In this document: positions 1 to 62,743 of the stretch, in pieces | Position numbering within the stretch: position 1 is the stretch's first letter | Layout: every line of letters begins with the position of its first letter | Assembly: GCA_016186395.1 (NCBI GenBank) | Contig: JACPLU010000003.1 | Location: forward strand, 11,883-75,882 | Direction of reading: 5' to 3' | DNA: 64,000 bases | DNA from: Parcubacteria group bacterium | GTDB taxonomy: Bacteria; Patescibacteriota; Minisyncoccia; 2-02-FULL-40-12 | Notes under the pieces: model-generated | Told to the model about the DNA's origin: nothing | Seen by the model: only the letters and a program-made list of their open reading frames with translations | The model's database searches: none | Position numbers and translations under genes: made by a program

Positions 1-71
1 GAAAAGGGCGGAGGCGTAGGGAAACCGAGTGCGAATAGTGCGTTTACCCGCCTACATTTTTAGATTTTAAC

Positions 72-114
72 AAAAAAAACAGCTGACTGAATTTATGTTT
101 CAATACAGCTGTTA
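72..114 (-). terminator. Rho-independent terminator for the insertion-encoded minus-strand ORF
   Basis: aacagctg(79-86)...cagctgtt(107-114) hairpin followed on the minus strand by an 8-T run (A-run 71-78 on plus). Confidence 0.6.
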
Positions 115-148
115 CCACTACCACCGAAATTAAATTCTGACGGATTTC

Positions 149-376
149 TTAGTCAACCAGTAGTTTAAGGACCTCCTCGTCTTCGTTGTAAAAACCGAGG
201 AGTTCACCGAGATGATTAATCACAGTGGACTTTTGAATCCAGTTTGGAACATCCGTTGCTCCAGCGAGCCTCACTTTCGTGTAGACAACGACTTCGCTTT
301 GTGTGCCTTCCAAAAGAGCCTCAACAGAACATTTCCGAATGAATTTATCACCTTTTTTTAAGTCTTTAAATTTCAT
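149..376 (-). CDS. 75-aa protein of unknown function encoded antisense inside the 23S insertion
   Basis: RBS aaggagga sits 5 nt upstream of ATG (374-376, minus strand). The 113-aa ORF in the track would start inside rRNA sequence beyond the inverted repeat, so the internal start is preferred. A hairpin plus T-run lies downstream at 72-114 on the minus strand. Confidence 0.5.
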   Translation of the reverse strand: MKFKDLKKGDKFIRKCSVEALLEGTQSEVVVYTKVRLAGATDVPNWIQKSTVINHLGELLGFYNEDEEVLKLLVD

Positions 377-1000
377 TGTCTCCTCCTTGAAGTAAAGAAC
401 GCGTTTGTTGAAATAGCAGTATATACTATGGTAGCATATACTTTTGTTTTTGTCAATTGAATCTAAAAATGTAGGCGGGATTTGTCTCATACTTAAGACC
501 CGAAGCCGGGTGAGCTACCCATGGCCAGGATGAAGTTCCGCGAAAGCGGAATGGAGGTCCGAACCCACGCATGGCGCAATATGCGGGGATGAGCTGTGGG
601 TCGGAGTGAAAAGCTTATCGAACCCGGTAATAGCTGGTTCTCTCCGAAATGCCTTTAGGGGCAGCGTCGGATTATGTTAAGTTGGGGGTAGAGCACTGAT
701 TGGATTTCCGTGCCCTTATGGGTAGGTTTTCCAGCCAAACTCCGAATACCAATTTAATTACTCCGGCAGTGAGACTACGGGGGCGAAGCTCCGTGGTCGC
801 GACGGGAACAGCCGTGATCTCAAGTTAAGGTCCCTAAATTAAGGTTAAGTGTGAAAGGTAGTGAAGACGCTCAAACAACCAGGAGGTTTGCTTAGAAGCA
901 GCCATCCTTTAAAGAGTGCGTAACAGCTCACTGGTCGAGCTTTTTTGCGCCTAAGATGTAACGGGGCTAAAACCTTATACCGAAACTGAGGGTTATCTGT

Positions 1001-1108
1001 GGCTCATCGATGCGTCTAAGGTCAAATGACTAAGGACTAAAGCTGAAAGGTTTAATTTTTGGCTTTAGACTTTAGACTCTAGACTTTAGTCGTGACGATG
1101 AGTCACGG
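1001..1108. repeat. 108-bp hairpin element, copy 1, inserted at the 23S helix-45 IVS hotspot
   Basis: Differs from 2087-2194 by a single nucleotide. Imperfect hairpin: gactaaggactaaagc ... gctttagactttagactctagactttagtc. Flanked by ggctcatcgatg / cgatgagtcacgg. Confidence 0.8.
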
Positions 1109-1666
1109 GTAGCGGTAGGAGAGCGCTTCATGTGCAGTGAAGCCTACGACGTGAGTCGGGGTGGAGCGCATGGAGGTGAGAATGTTGGCATGAGTAACCA
1201 CAATCCGCCTGAAAACGGCGGACGCCGAAAGCCTAAGGATTCCTCCGCGATGGCAATCATCGGAGGGTTAGGCGGCCCTAAGCATAAGTCAGGTTTTGGC
1301 CTGGCGAATGCGATGGACAGCCGGTTAATATTCCGGCCCTTCCTTATATTTTTAAGGAGCCCGGAGCTTAGTAGACTTGGCATATTATTGGATTTATGTT
1401 TGTGATATAAGAATGCGTCTTTGGAAAATCCGGGATGCTGTCTTTAATGACGAATTTAAATATTATGAAAACCCTGGTAACAGGGAATCAAGTTGAGCAA
1501 GCTTCCTAGAAAAACTTCTAAAATTATGTATAAGGAGTCCGTACCGCAATCCGACACAGGTAGGCAGCCAGGGAAACTGGTAAGGCGAACGGGTGAATGG
1601 TGGCTAAGGAACTCGGCAAAACAGCGGGCGTAAGTTCGCAATATGCCCTGCCAGCCGTAGATTTTA

Positions 1667-1953
1667 GTTTTTAATTTAGTTATAAAGTATCCATGTACTG
1701 TATTTATCTAATTCAGCATTCTGTAACAAAACAAATTTATATTGGTCTAACCAATGATTTGAAACGTCGGTTGTATGAACATAATGCTTCACAACAGAAA
1801 GCGACCAAAAGAAAAATTGGAGAATGGGTTTTAGTTTATGCAGAGGCATACAGAAATAAGACGGACGCTCAAATTAGAGAAAGAAAGTTGAAGCAACACG
1901 GAAGTAATAAACGTTGGTTAAAGGACAGAATTAAGTACAGTTTATTTGAAGAT
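1667..1953. other. Second helix-tip insertion in 23S (E. coli helix-63 region), bounded by a 16-bp perfect inverted repeat
   Basis: ccagccgtagatttta (1651-1666) pairs with taaaatctacggctgg (1954-1969). Conserved 23S sequence resumes at ggggactgtttatcaaaaacacag. Confidence 0.7.
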
Positions 1954-1956
1954 TAA
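1693..1956 (+). CDS. GIY-YIG domain protein (87 aa) encoded inside the 23S insertion
   Basis: The YIGLTNDLKRRLYEHN motif is a GIY-YIG core. The ORF is in the same sense as the rRNA. Confidence 0.7.
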   Translation: MYCIYLIQHSVTKQIYIGLTNDLKRRLYEHNASQQKATKRKIGEWVLVYAEAYRNKTDAQIRERKLKQHGSNKRWLKDRIKYSLFED

Positions 1957-2086
1957 AATCTACGGCTGGCCGCAGCGAATGACCTCTGGGGACTGTTTAT
2001 CAAAAACACAGCTCTCTGCTAACTCGAAAGAGGATGTATAGGGGGCGACGCTTGTCCAATGCTGGAACGTTAACGGTGATGGTCGT

Positions 2087-2194
2087 GGCTCATCGATGCG
2101 TCTAAGGTAAAATGACTAAGGACTAAAGCTGAAAGGTTTAATTTTTGGCTTTAGACTTTAGACTCTAGACTTTAGTCGTGACGATGAGTCACGG
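2087..2194. repeat. 108-bp hairpin element, copy 2, inserted in the 23S domain IV helix-68 region
   Basis: Nearly identical to 1001-1108. It interrupts the 23S between ggtgatggtcgtg and ctggagcccgaagcgccagtcaatgacggc. Confidence 0.8.
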
Positions 2195-2241
2195 CTGGAG
2201 CCCGAAGCGCCAGTCAATGACGGCAATAACCATAATTGTCC

Positions 2242-2466
2242 AAAGGTGAATCGCATTGCCTTTGTAAAATCCGACTATATCGGTGAACATCTCACTAAGA
2301 CGTGAGACAATACCGAGGCAATCCGTGAAAACGGAGAGTCCGTAGAGACTAAACGTCGGATCCTGAGCAAGCCGAAAGGCTAGTTGAAGGAAAGATATAG
2401 TCCGAACTGCATGGCGACATGCAGAAATGAGCAGAAATGTCTCGTTCCGCCGAGTCTGATTCGGCG
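2242..2466 (+). mobile_element. Small ORF-less group I intron in 23S, near E. coli position 1917
   Basis: Inserted after ccataattgtcc (E. coli ACGGUCC). Carries P7-like core strands gagactaaacgtcgg and aagatatagtccgaac, like the Tetrahymena CAGACTAAATGTCGG / AAGATATAGTCGGAC. Ends in G. Confidence 0.6.
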
Positions 2467-2529
2467 AAGTAACAATGTTGAGCGCAATTCCTTTCCGGGT
2501 AAGTTACGGAACTTGCCCCATGAAGAAGT

Positions 2530-3200
2530 GATTCTTTATGCAAAGTCGGCTTATAACGGTGGAGCCTGTTTCATGATAAAATGGAATAGAGAATACCGTG
2601 GGAAGTTGTCTTGACCTAACTCAAGATTAACCCCGTAACGACTGAGGCGAAAGCCACAATGGCGTTTTTTGAAACGTCATTATACGCCGACCCCTTAGGA
2701 TATTATGAGGAATATCGAAGAATATATTTCTGGATATGTTGATGGCGAAGGATGTTTTACTGTAACTTTTAACAAAAGGGATAAAGCAAAAATTGGTTGG
2801 GAATTAAGACCAAGTTTTTCAGTCAGTCAGAATGAAGAAAGACGACAGGTGCTAGATATTATACAGAAATATTTTGGATGTGGTTTTATTCGAAGAGATT
2901 ATTCAGACAGAACAGTAAAATTTGAAATTCGAGACCACATACAACTTAGAGATAGGGTTATTCCTCATTTTGAGAGATTTCCATTGCTCTCAAATAAACA
3001 AAAAGATTTTGAATTGTTTAGAGAAGTATGCAAAATTATTGATCATGGAGGTCATCTTACAAAAAGTGGATTTATTAAGATTGTAAATTTTGCTTATCGA
3101 ATGAATGGATCTGGTAAGCGTAAAAGAACTTCCCAAGAAATAATTCGAAATCTTAAATGATACTTAAGGTGATGATATAGTCTATAGTCTTAATTTAAAG
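2530..3200 (+). mobile_element. Group I intron in 23S domain IV, around E. coli 1931-1951, carrying a LAGLIDADG ORF; boundaries approximate
   Basis: Non-rRNA block between ccccatgaag and ggaaccactggaggactgtctcagcc. Shares taaccccgtaacgactga and ataccgtgggaagt with the intron at 4694-5437, and has P7-like ggtgatgatatagtc. Confidence 0.6.
2705..3160 (+). CDS. LAGLIDADG homing endonuclease (151 aa)
   Basis: YISGYVDGEGCF is a LAGLIDADG motif. Size is typical of a single-motif enzyme, and it sits inside a group I intron of the 23S. Confidence 0.8.
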   Translation: MRNIEEYISGYVDGEGCFTVTFNKRDKAKIGWELRPSFSVSQNEERRQVLDIIQKYFGCGFIRRDYSDRTVKFEIRDHIQLRDRVIPHFERFPLLSNKQKDFELFREVCKIIDHGGHLTKSGFIKIVNFAYRMNGSGKRKRTSQEIIRNLK

Positions 3201-3473
3201 ATTAAGAAGTTCCGGAGCGCATGAAAAGCGGAACCACTGGAGGACTGTCTCAGCCACTGGCCCGGTGAAAATGCAATGTCAGTAAAGATGCTGACTACCC
3301 GCACCAAGACGGAAAGACCCCGGAAGCTTTACTGTCTCTTGGTATTGGTCTATGAGTTTGGATGCGTAGTGTAGTGGGTAGGATTTGAAGTCCACCTTTT
3401 GGGGTGGATGGATCCAACAATGAAACACCCATCTTTCAGATTTATAGCTCTAACTGGTGACACCCTAGAAGGA

Positions 3474-3780
3474 AAATTTATAAGGAGGAGATTCTATAAT
3501 GCTATTTGAAGGTTCTCCTAGCCCAACATTTGAAGAAGAAGAAAAGTTTGGATTTAATCTATCAACAAAAATTTATGTTCATATTAATTCACCTCTTTTA
3601 GGTGAAAATGGTAATAAGATAGAAAAGAAATTTGGTGTATTAATCCATCTTTTAACTGGAAAACACGCGAGATTCAAATTAGCTGATCAATTTCGAGTAT
3701 ATGGAAGTGCGGCTAATGTGATAAAATTTTTGAGTAGTTATTTTCAATAAATTTCCTTTTGACAAGCTAGTCTTGTCTCT
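3474..3780. other. Third helix-tip insertion in 23S (domain V helix-78/79 region) carrying a sense-strand gene cassette
   Basis: Bounded by ccctagaa (3464-3471) and ttctaggg (3781-3788). Conserved sequence resumes at caggacagtgcctggtggacagtttgaatggggcg. Confidence 0.6.
3499..3750 (+). CDS. 83-aa protein of unknown function inside the 23S insertion
   Basis: RBS aaggaggag 9 nt upstream of ATG. Hairpin gacaagctagtcttgtc immediately after the stop. Confidence 0.45.
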   Translation: MLFEGSPSPTFEEEEKFGFNLSTKIYVHINSPLLGENGNKIEKKFGVLIHLLTGKHARFKLADQFRVYGSAANVIKFLSSYFQ

Positions 3781-4148
3781 TTCTAGGGTTTCATCAGGAC
3801 AGTGCCTGGTGGACAGTTTGAATGGGGCGTTTCCCTCCTAAAGAGTAACGGAGGGGTCCATAAGGTACCCTAGTCCCGGATGGAAATCGGGACGATAGTG
3901 TAAAAGCATAAGGGTGCTTGACTGCAAGGCAAACGTGCCGCGCAGGTGCGAAAGCAGGGTTTAGTGAACCGACCGTGGCTGGTAGGAGCGCGGAAGATTA
4001 TCGGATAAAAGCTACTCCGGGGATAACAGGCTAGTACCGCCCGAGCGTCCATAGCGACGGCGGTGTTCGGCACCTCGATGTCGGCTCGGCTTATCCTGGC
4101 GGTGAAGAAGCTGCCAAGGGTTGGGCTGTTCGCCCATTAAAAAGCTAC

Positions 4149-4621
4149 GCGAGCTGGGTTCAGACCGTTAAGAATCTGAATCATAAATCATGAAACTTGA
4201 AACATCTTGTTTCGGTTTGATTTGGTTTTTTAACAGTCTGAATCCGAGGATATTCAAAAGACATCATTTAACGGCGGCACTATATAGGAATATATAGTGT
4301 GAAGTTGACCATATCGGTGAAATCCCATTGGGATAACACCTAGGGAAGTTTGTAAACTTTATTGAAGTTCTTTTTTGGGAGGTGTAGCTCAAGAGTATTG
4401 TATGATGAAAGGCGAAAGTCGGGGACTCATACAGTAGCGAGAGCACTGGACTCTGGATCCAGAGGTTGCAGGTAAAAATCCTATCACCACCCACCAATTT
4501 TTGAGTAATCAATATTTGGCACTTCAATAAAGTTTACAAATCCCGTAGAGACTATACGTCAGCCACCCTAATTGAGCTTAGCTCAGCGGGTGAAGATATA
4601 GTCCAGTGCATACAGCAATGT
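4149..4621 (+). mobile_element. ORF-less group I intron in 23S at the I-CreI/I-CeuI-type site (around E. coli 2593)
   Basis: Exon gggttcagaccgt | intron | cgtgagacaggttggtcc matches E. coli GGGUUUAGAACGU|CGUGAGACAGUUCGGUCC. Core strands agactatacgtc and gaagatatagtcc are present and the intron ends in G. The only ORF in it (4264-4527, minus strand) looks spurious. Confidence 0.7.
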
Positions 4622-4693
4622 ATGAAACATGCGTGAGACAGGTTGGTCCTTATCTGGTGTGGGCGTTAAGACTTGAGGGGAGCTGCTCCTAGT

Positions 4694-5437
4694 AGAATTT
4701 GCTACTTTAAGGAGTAATCCTTAATGACAATCCGACTTATAACGGTGGAACCTTATTGCAACTTGATTTGTTGATAACCAGAATTATCCTAATCCAATAA
4801 TTCTGGTACAATTTACTTGAGGACAAGATAGTAATAAGACAATACCGTGGGAAGTCATTCTAAAAACGATTTAGCATATATTTCCGGTTTTCTTGATGGA
4901 GACGGAAGTTTAATGTTGCAGATCAAAAAGTATAAGTACAATAAGTCAGGAAAAAGATTCATGGTAACTATTTGTTTCTATCAGGATTCAAGACACGACA
5001 AACCTCTTTATTGGATCCGTAAGATATTCGGGATAGGGTATATATCTAAAAGAAATGACGGTATTACTGAATTAAGAATAAATGGATATTCTAGAGTAAG
5101 AATAATTTTAGAAAAACTATTGCCGTTTATTAAGTTTAAGAAGAAGCAAGCAAGAATTCTTTATAAAGCGAGTAAATTACTCGAAAAAGAAAAAAAACTT
5201 AAAAAGACTTCCATGATTCGACTCGTAGATTACATAGTAAGAATCCAAGAGGAAAATTATGTGACAAGAAAAAAGAGATCGAAAGATGATTTATTAAAAT
5301 TTTTAGGATTGACCCCGTAACGACTCATCTTTAAAATAGATGGATGGCTGTTTTTAAACAGTCATAATATGTCGGCTCCCATCTTTGTCGATGGGATGAA
5401 GATATAGTCTACTCTTCTGGTGACAGAAGAAAATGTG
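4694..5437 (+). mobile_element. Group I intron in 23S inserted within the sarcin-ricin loop, carrying a LAGLIDADG ORF
   Basis: Joining exons cctagt + acgagaggattgg recreates CUAGUACGAGAGGA. The 5' exon ends in U and the intron ends in G. Core strands taatatgtcgg and gaagatatagtct are present. Confidence 0.65.
4847..5320 (+). CDS. LAGLIDADG homing endonuclease (157 aa)
   Basis: LAYISGFLDGDGSL is a LAGLIDADG motif; the ORF is intron-encoded. Confidence 0.8.
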   Translation: MGSHSKNDLAYISGFLDGDGSLMLQIKKYKYNKSGKRFMVTICFYQDSRHDKPLYWIRKIFGIGYISKRNDGITELRINGYSRVRIILEKLLPFIKFKKKQARILYKASKLLEKEKKLKKTSMIRLVDYIVRIQEENYVTRKKRSKDDLLKFLGLTP

Positions 5438-5517
5438 ACGAGAGGATTGGAGTGGGGAAACCTCTGGCGTACCAGTAGTCCTGCCAAGGGCGTCGCTGGG
5501 TATCTATGTTTCCAAGT

Positions 5518-5548
<31 letters not shown>

Positions 5549-5703
5549 ATGCCCCAAGATTAGGTCTTTCTCTCCTGGAAGACTACCAGGTTGATAGGAT
5601 TCAGGTGTAAGCGCGGCAACGCGTTCAGCCGAGAATTACTAATAGAGAAACAATTTATTTTACCTTTTTTATAAATTCACCGAATACATAGTTTAAGAAT
5701 TGA

Positions 5704-5834
5704 AAAGACTAATTTGGCGATAATGCCGAGTGTGTCCCACCTCTGGTTTGTTTACAAGCCTTAATCCATTCCGAACAGAGAAGTGAAATCACTCAGGGCC
5801 GATGGTAGTTCGAGCTTAGCTCGAGCCAGAGTAG
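5704..5834 (+). rRNA. rrf: 5S rRNA, with a roughly 17-nt expansion in the helix III / loop B region
   Basis: Carries the 5S blocks gtcccacct, ccattccgaacagagaagtgaaa and ggccgatggtag, and ends in agagtaggtcgtcgccag. It lies about 55 bp after the 23S end. Confidence 0.7.
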
Positions 5835-6014
5835 GTCGTCGCCAGATTAGTCTTTTTAATTTGCTCTGTCACCAGGTCCAGCATAGCCACGCACCTTTTG
5901 TAAAACAAAAGGTGCGAGAGTACAAAAAATTAGTGCTGGGCTCCCTGTCCTGTCCGGCAGGCGGGGATGCGGGGCTTCTTGCAATAAAACAGATATTCGC
6001 GGTACGATTGAAGC

Positions 6015-6782
6015 ATGTCGCAGTTACGTTTAGTTAAGCAAATAGTTTATGCATTTATTTTAATATTGTTGATTCTTTTGATTGGTTTTGGTTTGTTCTC
6101 TCTTTTTAAACCAACAGAGCCAATTCAAACTTCCACTGCTTCACCTGTAAAACCACTTATTGTTGAAAATTCCTATCTAATTTCGCAAGGTATATTAGAT
6201 TACGACGTTTTAGTAACTGTCAGAAATCCAAATGTTGATTATGGTGCTTCAGAATTTGAATACGAGCTTAAATTTTCTGATATTCAAGGGAATCCAATAA
6301 AAACTGTTAAAGAAAAATCTTATATTTTACCGGGGCAGAGGAAGTATTTAATTTTTTCAGCGTTTAGACCACAAAGTGAAGTGTCTAACGTGCAGGTTGA
6401 AATTAATCAAGTTGTGTGGTCAAAATTGAAATCTTTTGTGGAGCCGTCGGCTTTATTTTTTGTGAAACAACAGAACTTAAGGAAAGAAGGGAGCTTGTTT
6501 ATTTTAGATGCTGTTATTTCCAATATTTCTAATTTTGATTTTGATACTGTTAATATTGTTGTTAGACTTGAGGGTTCCGGAGTAGACCCAGTAGCTGTGG
6601 GCGTAAGAAGAGAGGATACATTTATTTCTAAAACAGACAGGAGTGCTCGTCTTGTTTGGACTAAAGATTTTGGTCAGCCAATAACCGGGATAACAATAGA
6701 AACCTATACAAATGTGTTTAAAAATGATAATTTTTTACGTGATAAAGGAGGAGAGATTGAAAAATTTCAACAATTCTTTTGA
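6015..6782 (+). CDS. Hypothetical membrane-anchored protein (N-terminal TM helix, then an extracytoplasmic domain)
   Basis: 255-aa ORF with a hydrophobic N-terminal segment, ILILLILLIGFGLFSLF. Ends at a TGA stop. Confidence 0.55.
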   Translation: MSQLRLVKQIVYAFILILLILLIGFGLFSLFKPTEPIQTSTASPVKPLIVENSYLISQGILDYDVLVTVRNPNVDYGASEFEYELKFSDIQGNPIKTVKEKSYILPGQRKYLIFSAFRPQSEVSNVQVEINQVVWSKLKSFVEPSALFFVKQQNLRKEGSLFILDAVISNISNFDFDTVNIVVRLEGSGVDPVAVGVRREDTFISKTDRSARLVWTKDFGQPITGITIETYTNVFKNDNFLRDKGGEIEKFQQFF

Positions 6783-16021: not shown

Positions 16022-16196
16022 TTTCTTTCCTCCTTTGGGTCTTTCTTGAAAGTAGGGCTGAATTGTCATACTTTCATTATCTTTATTATACTACTTTTTA
16101 TAGTAAAAAGTCAAGGCAAAAACTTAGTCAGTAAACCACAAGCCTTTTGTCTTTAAATACCATTGAAATCTAAATCTGGAATAGTATAATAGTTAG

Positions 16197-23415: not shown

Positions 23416-23913
23416 CTAGAATGGTATATCTTTTAAGTCCACACTTGTTTCTTCTACGTCTTCATCTGAATTTGTTGGCGGTTCGTCCTCATTAACTACT
23501 GGTATTTCTTCTGGTGCAACCGGTCTGGTTTGATTTCTTGCTGTTGGGTTTGAGTTTGCCGTTGTTATTGTTTTTGGTTCACCTTGAAATCTCGGACCTA
23601 ATTGTAGATTTTCAGCTACTATTTCTGTTTGGTATCTTTTAAGACCATCTTTTCCTTCATAAGATCTAGTTTGAATTCTTCCTTCTATCATGACTAGCCT
23701 TCCTTTGGTTAAATATTGATTAGCAAGTTGGGCGAGTCTACCCCATAAAACTACTCGATGGAATTCAACTGCTTCTTGTTTTTCGCCTGCCTGGTTGTTC
23801 CAAACTCTATTTGTGGCAATTCTAATCGTGGCTACTTCTTGGCCATTCATTGTTGTTCTAAATTCCGGGTCAGCAGCTAGATTTCCTAGAACGAAAGCTT
23901 TGTTGAGATTCAT
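23416..23913 (-). CDS. ssb: Single-stranded DNA-binding protein
   Basis: OB fold with N-terminal MNLNKAFVLGNLAADPEFR and an acidic C-terminal tail ending DIPF. Confidence 0.9.
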   Translation of the reverse strand: MNLNKAFVLGNLAADPEFRTTMNGQEVATIRIATNRVWNNQAGEKQEAVEFHRVVLWGRLAQLANQYLTKGRLVMIEGRIQTRSYEGKDGLKRYQTEIVAENLQLGPRFQGEPKTITTANSNPTARNQTRPVAPEEIPVVNEDEPPTNSDEDVEETSVDLKDIPF

Positions 23914-23920
23914 GGTTTCG

Positions 23921-23980
23921 ACTAAAGTCAAAAGACTAGGGACTAAAGTTTTGGTCTTTAGACGCTAGACATTAGACTTA
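23921..23980. repeat. Stop-rich hairpin element (gactaaag family) between ssb and rpsF
   Basis: gactaaagtcaaaagactagggactaaagttttggtctttagacgctagacattagac. Confidence 0.6.
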
Positions 23981-38151: not shown

Positions 38152-39102
38152 GTGTTAAGCGAAAGAGCAAAATTATTGCTTTCTAATATTGTGTATCGGA
38201 GTTTGTTTGGCGTTTTTTTTACATACGAACAAATAGAGTCAGTGGGACTTAAGGATGCGCTGACGGAACTTTTTGAAAAAAAAATAATCAGAGAATGCAT
38301 GTTTCATGAAAAAAGATTTATAGTACTTGTTGAACATGAGAAAGAATTGGAAAATTTCTTGGCCATGCGGAAAGTTGCGGAACAGAAAAAGGGGACCCTG
38401 ATAAAATATTTAAAATTTTTTCGTATTTCTCCCTTTATCAGAGCGGTCTTTATAAGTGGGTCATTAACTTTAGGCAGAGTAGAGGACGATAGTGACCTTG
38501 ATGTTTTTGTTTTGACTGCACCCGACCGAATTTGGACAGCCAGATTTTTACTTTCAGCTATTCTCTCATTATTTGGAATTCGTAGAACGAAATTTGAATC
38601 TATTGCTCCCAATAAAATTTGTTTGAGTCATTATATGACTACAAATGCATTGTTTGATTATGAAAGTATTTTTACCGCTCAAGTTCTGGGAAATTTAGAG
38701 CTTTTGTGGGAAGCAAAACCAGAAATTGGCAAGACTTTTGTCAGAAAACATAAATGGCTTCGAAAGTATCTATTAATAAGCCCTAATGAGTTATTGGAAA
38801 AACAAGTTAATAAAATAGGTCAAAGTTTGGTTCAAAAAATAGGGGAATGGTTTTTAAACGGGTGGTTTGGGTCAATCATTGAATGGTTTTTAAGAATTAT
38901 TCAGTTAAGGAGGATAAAAAATGATCCCAAAACTCTACGTCCCAATGGCAGAATAGTAGCAACAGATCAAATGCTCGAATTTCATCCTGATTCAAAAGAG
39001 GGGGAAGTAATCAGGGACTACAATTTGGCTATGAAAAAACTCGGATTTCCCGAGTTTGCGAATGAGAGGAGTTCTAAGATGGAAGTAGTGATTAGTAACT
39101 AA
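38152..39102 (+). CDS. Hypothetical nucleotidyltransferase-fold protein
   Basis: ISGSLTLGRVEDDSDLDVFV resembles the pol-beta-superfamily NTase GS...D.D motif. Confidence 0.45.
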   Translation: MLSERAKLLLSNIVYRSLFGVFFTYEQIESVGLKDALTELFEKKIIRECMFHEKRFIVLVEHEKELENFLAMRKVAEQKKGTLIKYLKFFRISPFIRAVFISGSLTLGRVEDDSDLDVFVLTAPDRIWTARFLLSAILSLFGIRRTKFESIAPNKICLSHYMTTNALFDYESIFTAQVLGNLELLWEAKPEIGKTFVRKHKWLRKYLLISPNELLEKQVNKIGQSLVQKIGEWFLNGWFGSIIEWFLRIIQLRRIKNDPKTLRPNGRIVATDQMLEFHPDSKEGEVIRDYNLAMKKLGFPEFANERSSKMEVVISN

Positions 39103-52139: not shown

Positions 52140-52206
52140 ACGTCTAATGTCTTAAGACTAAGGTCTATAATCATAAAGAAGCTTTAGACATTAGCCTTTG
52201 GTCTTT
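52140..52206. repeat. Stop-rich hairpin element (variant of the gactaaag family)
   Basis: cgtctaatgtcttaagactaaggtct...ctttagacattagcctttggtctttagtc. Confidence 0.55.
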
Positions 52207-53574
52207 AGTCAAAGAATGCGAATTACCTTTTACGGTGGAGCAAAGCTTGTTACAGGAGCAAATTATTTGTTGGAAGACAAAGATTTTCTTGCTCTTGTTG
52301 ACTGTGGTTTATTCCAAGGTTCTCGTTTTTGTGAGGACTTAAATTACGAACCATTTCCTTATGAGCCCAAAAATATTAAATATGTTTTTATAACTCATAG
52401 TCATATTGATCATACCGGAAGGTTGCCAAAACTTTATAAAGAAGGTTTTAGGGGTAAAGTTTTTTCTACTAGACCCATCCGGGATATTTTAGAACACGCT
52501 TTGCCTGACAGCCTTAATCATCTTAAAAGAGAAGCAGAGGAACAAAATCGGGAACCTATTTATAGTTTTGAAGATGTTGGTTCTGTTATAAAATTGTTTG
52601 AAACTTTTGATTATGATCAAAAAACTGATTTGGGCAATGGAAAATATTTTATACTGCATGACGCCGGACATATATTGGGTTCTAGTATTATTGAATTTGG
52701 CTGGTCTGGCGGACGGATTTTATTTTCTGGTGATTTAGGTAATCCACCGACACCATTACTTAGGCCGACTGAATACATTGAGGGGGTGGATTACGTTGTA
52801 GTTGAATCTGCCTATGGCAATAGAATTCATGAAAATAGAGACGAGAGAAAGGAGATACTAAAAACAACTATCGAAGAAACTATAAAAAGAGGTGGTGTAT
52901 TAATGATTCCTTCTTTTGCAATGGAACGTACTCAAGAGCTTTTGTTTGAACTAAATGAGATGGTGGAGAATAAAAGAATTCCTTTTATCCCAATTTTTAT
53001 AGACAGTCCATTAGCTATCAAATTAACTGAAGTTTATAAAAAACACGAAGCATATTTTAACAAAGAAGCATCCTATTTGATAGATAGTGGTGATGATATA
53101 TTCAAATTTCCGGGACTCTATTTTACATCTTCGGTTGAAGAATCAAAGTCAATAAATGAGGTAAATTCTCCAAAGATTATTATTGCCGGTTCTGGTATGA
53201 GTCAGGGTGGAAGAATTTTACATCATGAAAGGCGATATTTGTCGGATCCTAACAGTACAATTTTATTTGTTGGCTATCAGGCTAAAGGAAGCTTGGGAAG
53301 AAAAATCTTGGATGGGGAAAAAGAAGTTAAAATATTTGGAGAGAGCATACTAATTAAGTGTAAAATAAAGGCTATTGGCGGCTATTCTGCTCATGCCGAT
53401 CAACCGGGTCTTGTACGTTGGGTTAAAAAGGCTTCTATTGGTGAAAAGCTAAAAAAAGTTTTTATTGTACAAGGAGAAGAAATAGCTATGGAAGCGTTGA
53501 GCGAAAAATTGAAGGATGAAATTAGCGGTCTAGAAACTGTTATACCTAGCATTGGGGACGATTTTGATTTATAG
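52198..53574 (+). CDS. beta-CASP family metallo-beta-lactamase ribonuclease (CPSF/RNase J-like), second copy in window
   Basis: HSHIDHTGRLP MBL motif and beta-CASP region, about 450 aa. Confidence 0.8.
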   Translation: MVFSQRMRITFYGGAKLVTGANYLLEDKDFLALVDCGLFQGSRFCEDLNYEPFPYEPKNIKYVFITHSHIDHTGRLPKLYKEGFRGKVFSTRPIRDILEHALPDSLNHLKREAEEQNREPIYSFEDVGSVIKLFETFDYDQKTDLGNGKYFILHDAGHILGSSIIEFGWSGGRILFSGDLGNPPTPLLRPTEYIEGVDYVVVESAYGNRIHENRDERKEILKTTIEETIKRGGVLMIPSFAMERTQELLFELNEMVENKRIPFIPIFIDSPLAIKLTEVYKKHEAYFNKEASYLIDSGDDIFKFPGLYFTSSVEESKSINEVNSPKIIIAGSGMSQGGRILHHERRYLSDPNSTILFVGYQAKGSLGRKILDGEKEVKIFGESILIKCKIKAIGGYSAHADQPGLVRWVKKASIGEKLKKVFIVQGEEIAMEALSEKLKDEISGLETVIPSIGDDFDL

Positions 53575-53613: not shown

Positions 53614-53700
53614 TCTAGCGTCTAAGGACTAAAGTCTAAAGACTAACGGCTAACGCCAATACCTTTCAGCTTTAGTCCTTAGACATTAAGCTACACATGA
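53614..53700. repeat. Stop-rich hairpin element (CGTCTAAGGACTAAAG family)
   Basis: gcgtctaaggactaaagtctaaagactaacggctaacg...ctttagtccttagacattaagctacacatga. TAA occurs in all three frames. Confidence 0.75.
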
Positions 53701-62455: not shown

Positions 62456-62667
62456 GTGATCAATTTTATAATTCCTGTCAGAAAACCCCGAGCGTCAGCT
62501 CGGGGATGAATGACAGCCCCGAAGCGAGCGCAAGCGAGCGTAGGGAAATTATATAAGTCAGGATTGATTTTGAAAAGCATCAATATCTTTTCAAAATCAA
62601 TCCCGTACTCTCTGGAGTACCACGGGCGTAAGCCCGTAGACTTCTATAAACCCTCGCAAGAAGACTA

Positions 62668-62743
62668 TGGTCTAACGTCTAAGGACTAAAGCCGAAAAGT
62701 ACTGGCGCTAGTTGTTAGTCCTTAGACGTTAAGCTACACATGA
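62668..62743. repeat. Stop-rich hairpin element (CGTCTAAGGACTAAAG family)
   Basis: acgtctaaggactaaagccgaaaagtactggcgctagttgttagtccttagacgttaagctacacatga. Confidence 0.75.

Follow-up and report, generated by a model that had tools for sequence, protein, structure and literature searches.

The 23S rRNA gene of a Parcubacteria group bacterium carries, at the tip of helix 79 (H79), an AT-rich insert of 320 nucleotides (nt) that is bounded by a long stem and holds an 83-codon open reading frame (ORF) behind a strong Shine-Dalgarno (SD) sequence. The gene-like statistics of this ORF, a single distant homologue of its product and the absence of the insert from the other Parcubacteria lineages that we compared complete the picture. 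From these features we infer, with somewhat better than even confidence, that the insert is an IVS-type element that is cotranscribed with the rRNA, is released by RNase III at its stem and carries the ORF as SD-led, translated cargo.

RESULTS

An insert at the tip of 23S rRNA helix 79

The analyzed stretch of 64,000 nt (contig JACPLU010000003.1; here called the window) opens with a bacterial 23S rRNA gene that is heavily interrupted and of which the 3' four-fifths are present (positions 1 to 5650; 1270 bits against the Rfam model LSU_rRNA_bacteria), and the 5S rRNA gene comes next. Nine inserts in total lie in this portion of the 23S gene. Three of them bear ORFs without being introns, and anchoring to the Escherichia coli 23S rRNA places these three in H31, H63 and H79 (Table 1). 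A preliminary description of this DNA had spoken of three gene-bearing insertions in one 23S gene, and this count holds, with a 75-amino-acid (aa) ORF on the opposite strand in H31, a GIY-YIG ORF in H63 and the 83-aa ORF in H79.

Covariance-model alignment of positions 3236 to 4170 gave perfect posterior support on both sides of the H79 insertion and placed 330 nt where the Rfam model has a 9-nt consensus hairpin loop (model positions about 2227 to 2250). In the E. coli anchoring, CTAAC at window positions 3449 to 3453 corresponds to E. coli 2196 to 2200 and window position 3797 to E. coli 2223, and positions 3454 to 3797 therefore represent H79 (E. coli 2201 to 2222), which is 343 nt long here versus about 22 nt in E. 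coli. The third helix extension that had been described in this gene is thus an insertion at the tip of the native H79.

An inverted-repeat search returned the arms 3454 to 3473 and 3778 to 3797. Folded as a two-arm mini-construct, these arms formed 7 bp, a 1x1 C/U mismatch and a further 12 bp (19 bp in total) with an energy of −26.7 kcal/mol (z = −7.3; 0 of 200 shuffles as good), and the fold of the whole region was closed by the same 19-bp stem (z = −2.95 versus shuffles). The bounding repeat ccctagaa/ttctaggg noted earlier was found at 3463 to 3470, one base further left than first reported, and at 3781 to 3788. Within the 64-kb window, the H79 insert with its terminal inverted repeats is present as a single copy.

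Table 1. Features of the H79 insert and of other inserts in the 23S rRNA gene (window coordinates)
Feature	Position	Strand	Remarks
H79 basal stem, native 5' strand CUGGUGA	3454..3460	+	Pairs with 3791-3797; covariance model, E. coli anchoring, fold
Stem extension, 5' arm ACCCUAGAAGGA	3462..3473	+	12 bp; pairs with 3778-3789
Insert proper, TAGAAGG...CTTTCTA	3466..3785	+	320 nt, 31% G+C, in place of the H79 apical tetraloop
Shine-Dalgarno sequence AAGGAGGAG	3482..3490	+	8-10 nt before the ATG, depending on the motif end chosen
ORF, 83 aa + TAA stop	3499..3750	+	ATG start; GenBank hypothetical protein HYW77_01015
Hairpin GACAAG-CUAGU-CUUGUC	3761..3777	+	6 bp (3 G-C); abuts the 3' arm of the stem; followed by TCTTTCTAGG
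Stem extension, 3' arm UCUUUCUAGGGU	3778..3789	+	Repeat search, fold
H79 basal stem, native 3' strand UCAUCAG	3791..3797	+	rRNA resumes with GGACAG (E. coli 2223)
H31 insert	54-478		75-aa orphan ORF, 376->152, antisense to the rRNA; E. coli 637-653 hairpin
H63 insert	about 1660-1965 (region 1650-1970)		87-aa GIY-YIG ORF; 25-nt stem; ORF end overlaps the 3' arm
Group I intron, ORF-less	about 2243-2480		After E. coli T1931
Group I intron, LAGLIDADG protein of 151 aa	about 2501-3206 (protein 2705-3157)		After E. coli T1951
Group I-like insert, ORF-less	4169-4631		463 nt; E. coli 2593/2594; 43.8 bits, below the gathering score
LAGLIDADG intron	4695-5437		E. coli 2657

The 83-aa ORF is probably a real gene

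The ORF begins at the first start codon past an in-frame TAA and occupies 79% of the insert. Its product is identical to the GenBank entry HYW77_01015, a hypothetical protein of Parcubacteria group bacterium, which puts the host among the CPR/Patescibacteria. Among 5,000 dinucleotide-preserving shuffles of the insert, 20 contained, in one or other of the six frames, an ORF that reached 83 codons or more (p about 0.004). We then scored codon usage as a log-odds value, for which 28 long ORFs from this window served as the training set. In frame, the ORF reached 0.326 per codon, while the other five frames scored between −0.30 and −1.25; for comparison, real genes cut into 83-codon pieces gave 0.348 ± 0.130, and off-frame sequence gave −0.74 ± 0.27.

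The ribosome-binding site and 83-aa frame of the preliminary description were both recovered. SD sequences are used sparingly in this genome (about 9 of 42 long ORFs). Half of the AAGGAGG heptamers in the window (7 of 14) have an ATG 5 to 10 nt downstream, against a background of 0.084 (binomial P = 6e-5), and strong SDs may mark a special subset of genes in this organism. Several AAGGAGG-ATG pairs precede short ORFs, for example, at 38907 and 56950 and, on the reverse strand, at 16029 and 29613. The idea that the SD of the H79 ORF is sequestered in a regulatory hairpin was dropped, as the local fold was no better than that of shuffles (z = −1.27). On the strength of its length, its codon usage, the SD-ATG arrangement and a distant homologue (see below), we regard the ORF as probably a real gene. 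Its predicted tryptic peptides are FGFNLSTK, IYVHINSPLLGENGNK, FGVLIHLLTGK, LADQFR and VYGSAANVIK.

H79 lacks the insert in 11 other Parcubacteria lineages

The 23S rRNA genes of relatives were reached through homologues of the LAGLIDADG protein encoded by the neighboring intron. In this way H79 was recovered from 11 other Parcubacteria lineages; it measured 23 to 33 nt in each, and none of the 11 contained an insert. The flanking rRNA of these genes is 72 to 87% identical to that of the window, and no truly close relative is among them. A very specific 23S flank pattern, scanned over metagenome contigs, had no match. On these sequences the H79 insert is lineage specific, being absent from the 11 other lineages, and the comparative alignment that had been proposed as a check yielded no orthologous insert.

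Nine of the 11 helices (L003, L007, L008, L020, L024, L030, L041, L045 and L046) measure 23 to 24 nt and share a conserved CAAAA(A)C loop, and the remaining two, from the L010 family and from L019, measure 33 nt and have UUCG or UUUG as their loop. This distribution suggests that the CAAAA(A)C loop makes a contact that was given up by the lineage of the window and by the L010 family. In L010, H79 reads ctggtatggaaccc-ttcg-gggaagccatatcaag (in longer form, CTGGTATGGAACCC-TTCG-GGGAAGCCATATCAAG), and its counterpart in the window is CTGGTGACACCC-[320 nt]-GGGTTTCATCAG. Set side by side at the tip, ...AACCC-TTCG-GGGAAG... in L010 versus ...CACCC-[320 nt]-GGGTTT... in the window, the insert looks like a replacement of the tetraloop. 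By the same comparison, the CCC/GGG of the stem extension is probably native and the remainder was probably brought in by the insert.

The predicted protein belongs to a very rare family

An exhaustive HMMER search of 1.84 billion representative proteins returned one other protein, P0002 (169 aa; E = 2.6e-5). Residues 101 to 164 of P0002 match residues 21 to 83 of the ORF product with 45 to 46% identity over 63 to 64 aa (pairwise E = 4e-15), and the two share the motifs TK[IV]YVH..SPLLGEN and DQFR..GS..NV..FL..YF. The remote-homology search that the preliminary description had called for was therefore productive to the extent of this distant homologue, the only one among all those proteins. 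P0002 is encoded on two short contigs (L001 and L002) of a higher-G+C organism (45 to 51%) that is unrelated to the host, where it adjoins a POTRA-domain protein and unknown neighbors, with a transposase nearby in L002 and no rRNA, an uninformative context. Since P0002 lies outside any rRNA gene, the domain exists elsewhere as ordinary protein-coding sequence.

Further searches widened this family no more. Word-indexed protein searches with the ORF product and with a profile of the ORF product and P0002 found nothing beyond these two proteins, and no relative of the ORF appeared in back-translated scans of the genome (twice), metagenome and viral contig collections or in tblastn searches of phages. 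An exact-sequence look-up of the ORF in a contig index had no match, and the protein and contig searches found no orthologue in any other rRNA gene. Sequence searches of Pfam, NCBIfam, PHROGs, PADLOC and PDB with the 83-aa protein gave no credible match; it did not match PF05635 (23S_rRNA_IVP/S23p), and no homing-endonuclease domain (LAGLIDADG, GIY-YIG, HNH, His-Cys or PD-(D/E)XK) was found in it at an E value of ≤1. Residues 90 to 155 of P0002 aligned with phrog_37703 at an E value of 0.066, which was uncorroborated elsewhere. AlphaFold models reached a pLDDT of 48.8 from the two-sequence alignment and 38.6 for P0002 alone, and their secondary structures disagreed; at this low confidence the models are uninformative. 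The 83-aa protein is thus a member of a very rare family without a recognizable fold or motif.

Transcription signals and intron signatures in the insert

The preliminary description had placed a terminator-like hairpin behind the ORF. A 6-bp hairpin is indeed present there, but the terminator reading is weak: the insert contains 2 terminator-like sites versus 0.7 ± 1.1 expected in shuffles, chance could account for the hairpin taken by itself, and the T-rich stretch behind it coincides with the 3' arm of the bounding stem. We rejected the hairpin as a terminator; a working one at this position would deprive the 23S rRNA of its final 700 nt, the last quarter. No promoter-like site was found on the sense strand inside or just upstream of the insert, and no RNase III gene (rnc) was found within the 64-kb window. 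A degenerate intron core, held up earlier as the observation that would speak against the insert being a helix extension with its own gene, was not detected either, as an Rfam scan of the insert gave no group I or other signal at an E value of ≤1.

Other inserts and repeats around the rRNA genes

The H31 insert was assigned to this helix, and not to H25, by E. coli alignment together with the helix table of PMC2441807. Its antisense ORF has the SD AAGGAGGAGA, the same as that of the H79 ORF, and a promoter-like site of its own (456->428; TTGACA-17-TACCAT with an extended TG). At the same H31 site, L003 has an insert with a 101-aa, SD-led antisense ORF that is unrelated to the one in the window. 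Orphan ORFs are thus a recurrent feature of helix-tip inserts in Parcubacteria 23S rRNA genes, as the H31 and L003 cases illustrate.

The H63 insert has the same layout as the H79 insert, namely, a stem and a compact ORF. A GIY-YIG homologue of the H63 ORF (54% identity) occupies the same site in L030 (257 to 584), where the insert is bounded by an 18-bp perfect stem of entirely different sequence from that in the window. Because the two stems differ in sequence and yet both pair, what selection keeps is the pairing and not the sequence, an indication that the bounding stems matter at the RNA level. BLASTP detected no similarity between the 83-aa H79 protein and the ORFs of the other inserts. 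All three ORF-bearing inserts have TAGA...TCTA ends, and we considered a transposon-like common origin on this basis; the ends of the L030 GIY-YIG insert are quite different, and the shared ends are most likely due to chance.

The same gene contains four group I or group I-like introns, all in conserved sequence (E. coli positions 1931, 1951, 2593 and 2657). The first two are only about 20 nt apart and enclose the mini-exon AGCGCAATTCCTTTCCGGGT at about 2481 to 2500. The group I-like insert at E. coli 2593 contains a perfect 20-nt inverted repeat (4349 to 4368 and 4521 to 4540) and a weak tRNA-like match. In L010 (5929 to 7126; also in L011, L013 and L017), a 1.2-kb 23S insert at E. coli 2262/2263 carries an unrelated 83-aa orphan ORF (6160 to 6411) upstream of a LAGLIDADG_2 gene; that this ORF and the H79 ORF are of equal length is a coincidence.

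A palindromic element of 110 nt is present in two copies within the 23S gene, at 999 to 1108 and 2085 to 2194 (99% identity), one on the tip of H45, the second within the hairpin that spans E. coli positions of approximately 1855 to 1890. Degenerate relatives lie in intergenic sequence at 53627 to 53687, 23910 to 23979, 62665 to 62700 and 52141 to 52210, and the element looks like a dispersed REP/MITE-like repeat that invaded the 23S gene at sites of the classical IVS type. The 5S gene (5713 to 5847) is bracketed by a 23-nt inverted repeat (5698 to 5720 and 5839 to 5861; 91% complementary), which could be a double-stranded processing stem.

DISCUSSION

Comparison with known rRNA inserts

In classical IVSs, an extended stem-loop with complementary borders replaces a small tetraloop, typically in H9, H25 or H45, and is cut by RNase III (PMC4990558). 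The H79 insert resembles the classical elements (Leptospira, Coxiella burnetii and Brucella; S23p, helix 45) in that a few hundred nucleotides stand in place of the small apical loop of a surface helix inside the rRNA gene, complementary ends form a long and stable stem (here 19 bp), a single small ORF lies on the sense strand, and the rRNA gene concerned is the single copy of a reduced genome. Its occurrence is also sporadic, as judged among 11 Parcubacteria 23S lineages, none of which is a close relative. It differs from these elements in its site, H79 instead of helices 9, 25 and 45, and in its ORF, which lacks similarity to PF05635 and belongs to an almost empty family; the list of usual sites describes the known IVS cases rather than a mechanism. 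The ORF-bearing IVSs of Leptospira and Coxiella are excised by RNase III without religation, which has been demonstrated there, whereas we infer it here. Coxiella apparently does not make the protein and breaks the excised RNA down rapidly; there the ORF is decaying and has a poor SD (PMC4990558), in contrast to the strong SD of the H79 ORF. The combination of a surface helix tip, a long duplex, a compact sense ORF and a sporadic distribution leads us to read the insert as an IVS-type element, and since the SD is strong and the frame is intact, unlike in Coxiella, we lean towards the protein being made.

The survey by Tsurumaki et al. (2024; PMC11270868) describes the rRNA genes of CPR/Patescibacteria as rich in inserts, which are reported to be removed from the transcripts (citing Brown 2015), and the non-intron inserts are proposed there to be RNase III IVSs. 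In this survey, 469 of 535 non-intron 23S inserts are without an annotated ORF; ORFs were annotated by Pfam only, so that orphan ORFs like that of H79 would be left undescribed and filed under this heading. The H79 insert shares with the non-intron class the host group, a position on top of a stem-loop where conservation is poor, the lack of a group I or II match and the lack of an annotated ORF. The GIY-YIG insert of the window likewise belongs to the class described there. Judging from the text of the survey, H79 appears to lie outside the 14 frequent CPR insertion sites.

H79 is also where the eukaryotic expansion segment ES31 attaches (PMC12368212), and H31, H45, H63 and H79 are the attachment points of ES9, ES15, ES27 and ES31, respectively (helix table of PMC2441807; PMC12368212). 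Like ES31, the insert extends H79 helically at the same point of the large subunit. ES31, however, is retained, noncoding and conserved within lineages, whereas the H79 insert is AT rich, consists largely of an ORF, is lineage specific and is probably removed. With group I introns that carry homing-endonuclease ORFs it has in common a selfish lifestyle in an rRNA gene and a small sense ORF; in contrast to them, it has no catalytic core, sits in a variable loop whose helix it continues and encodes no recognizable endonuclease domain.

A model for the H79 insert and its alternatives

In the model that we favor, the AT-rich cassette would have replaced the apical tetraloop of H79, its terminal inverted repeats prolonging the native stem into the 19-bp duplex, and it would be transcribed within the pre-23S rRNA from the rRNA promoter. 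RNase III would cut the long stem without religation and leave a 23S rRNA nicked at H79. The released RNA, predicted at about 300 nt, would consist of a leader, the strong SD, the 83-codon ORF and the 3' hairpin, and the protein would probably be translated either from this RNA or from the precursor as it is being made. In this model the ORF most likely acts as selfish or hitchhiking cargo that profits from rRNA-level transcription; a mobility function is at most conceivable. A point against the IVS reading is that excision of all five non-intron inserts without ligation would leave the 23S rRNA in six or more pieces, an extreme, if possible, state for a bacterium.

As an alternative, the insert may be a neutral, selfish IVS that is excised and degraded and whose ORF is dead or was never translated, the frame being a relic of the kind proposed for the S23p ORF of Coxiella; in our estimate this alternative has a modest chance of being correct. 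The Coxiella precedent favors it, as does the orphan status of the ORF, for which no orthologue was found in other rRNA genes and to which no function could be assigned from domain searches. A relic is nevertheless hard to reconcile with an intact frame that starts at the first ATG after a stop, with codon usage indistinguishable from that of host genes and with a domain conserved at 46% identity in an unrelated bacterium; moreover, a consensus SD stands at the right distance, where that of Coxiella is poor, and SD-ATG pairs are clearly functional in this genome. We consider it improbable that the 320 nt are retained as an H79 arm, that is, as a bacterial expansion segment whose ORF is incidental or is read from the precursor only. 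Such an arm would occupy the ES31 site, the insert does prolong the helix and has more structure than its shuffles, and in E. coli several expansion-segment sites of the rRNA accept insertions (PMC2441807). In that E. coli screen no insertion was recovered in H79, however, and transcripts of CPR bacteria reportedly lack the inserts (PMC11270868). The insert is missing in all 11 relatives examined, and a purely structural arm would not explain why so much of it is an ORF with host-like codons and a strong SD.

An assembly or binning artifact, by which AT-rich DNA of foreign origin ended up in the rRNA gene, is very improbable. The sequence does come from a metagenome-assembled genome, rRNA regions are hard to assemble and the insert is present only once; yet the junctions fall exactly at the H79 loop, the complementary ends extend the helix in register, the codon usage matches that of the host, and other inserts of the same gene have same-site homologues in independent assemblies. 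A degenerate group I intron or its core-less remnant, an origin that might be thought of in a gene with four group I or group I-like introns, is in our view scarcely credible. Those four inserts match Intron_gpI (RF00028), whereas positions 3454 to 3797 give no such signal even at an E value of ≤10, and the introns sit in conserved sequence, whereas the insert lies in the apical loop of a variable hairpin whose helix it continues. Compared with the IVS-type model, a bolder version, in which the rRNA operon would be a platform for expression, has a low probability in our view: RNase III, by cutting at the H79 stem, would release from the pre-23S rRNA a mature, translatable mRNA that encodes a new family of small proteins, and the protein would either mobilize helix-tip inserts, as a new and tiny factor of the homing type, or have the ribosome or a ribosome precursor as its target.

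Implications for CPR rRNA genes

Elements of this kind are already known, both as stem-bounded, ORF-carrying IVSs and as non-intron inserts in CPR rRNA genes. The novelty of the present one lies in where it sits, H79, and in its cargo, a small protein of a nearly unique family, encoded behind a strong SD. Although the genomes of CPR bacteria are tiny, their single rRNA operon is loaded with inserts. Surveys described the inserts with introns or homing endonucleases and left a large non-intron class uncharacterized; the H79 case indicates that at least some non-intron inserts harbor orphan genes that are compact, are preceded by an SD and resemble host genes in their codon usage. The ORF-bearing inserts occupy sites of eukaryotic expansion segments, H31 (ES9), H63 (ES27) and H79 (ES31), which fits a view of H31, H45, H63 and H79 as surface positions that tolerate interruption and does not imply that inserts are retained there.

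Should the ORF not be translated, the insert would be one more selfish IVS at a new site. If it is translated from the excised RNA of the IVS, bacteria would have provided a clear case in which rRNA processing brings a protein gene to expression, and the case would bear on how expansion segments originate. And if a functional mRNA is matured from the pre-rRNA, then, together with the antisense ORF of H31 and the GIY-YIG ORF of H63, the helix tips of CPR 23S rRNA would be a general harbor for functional protein genes.
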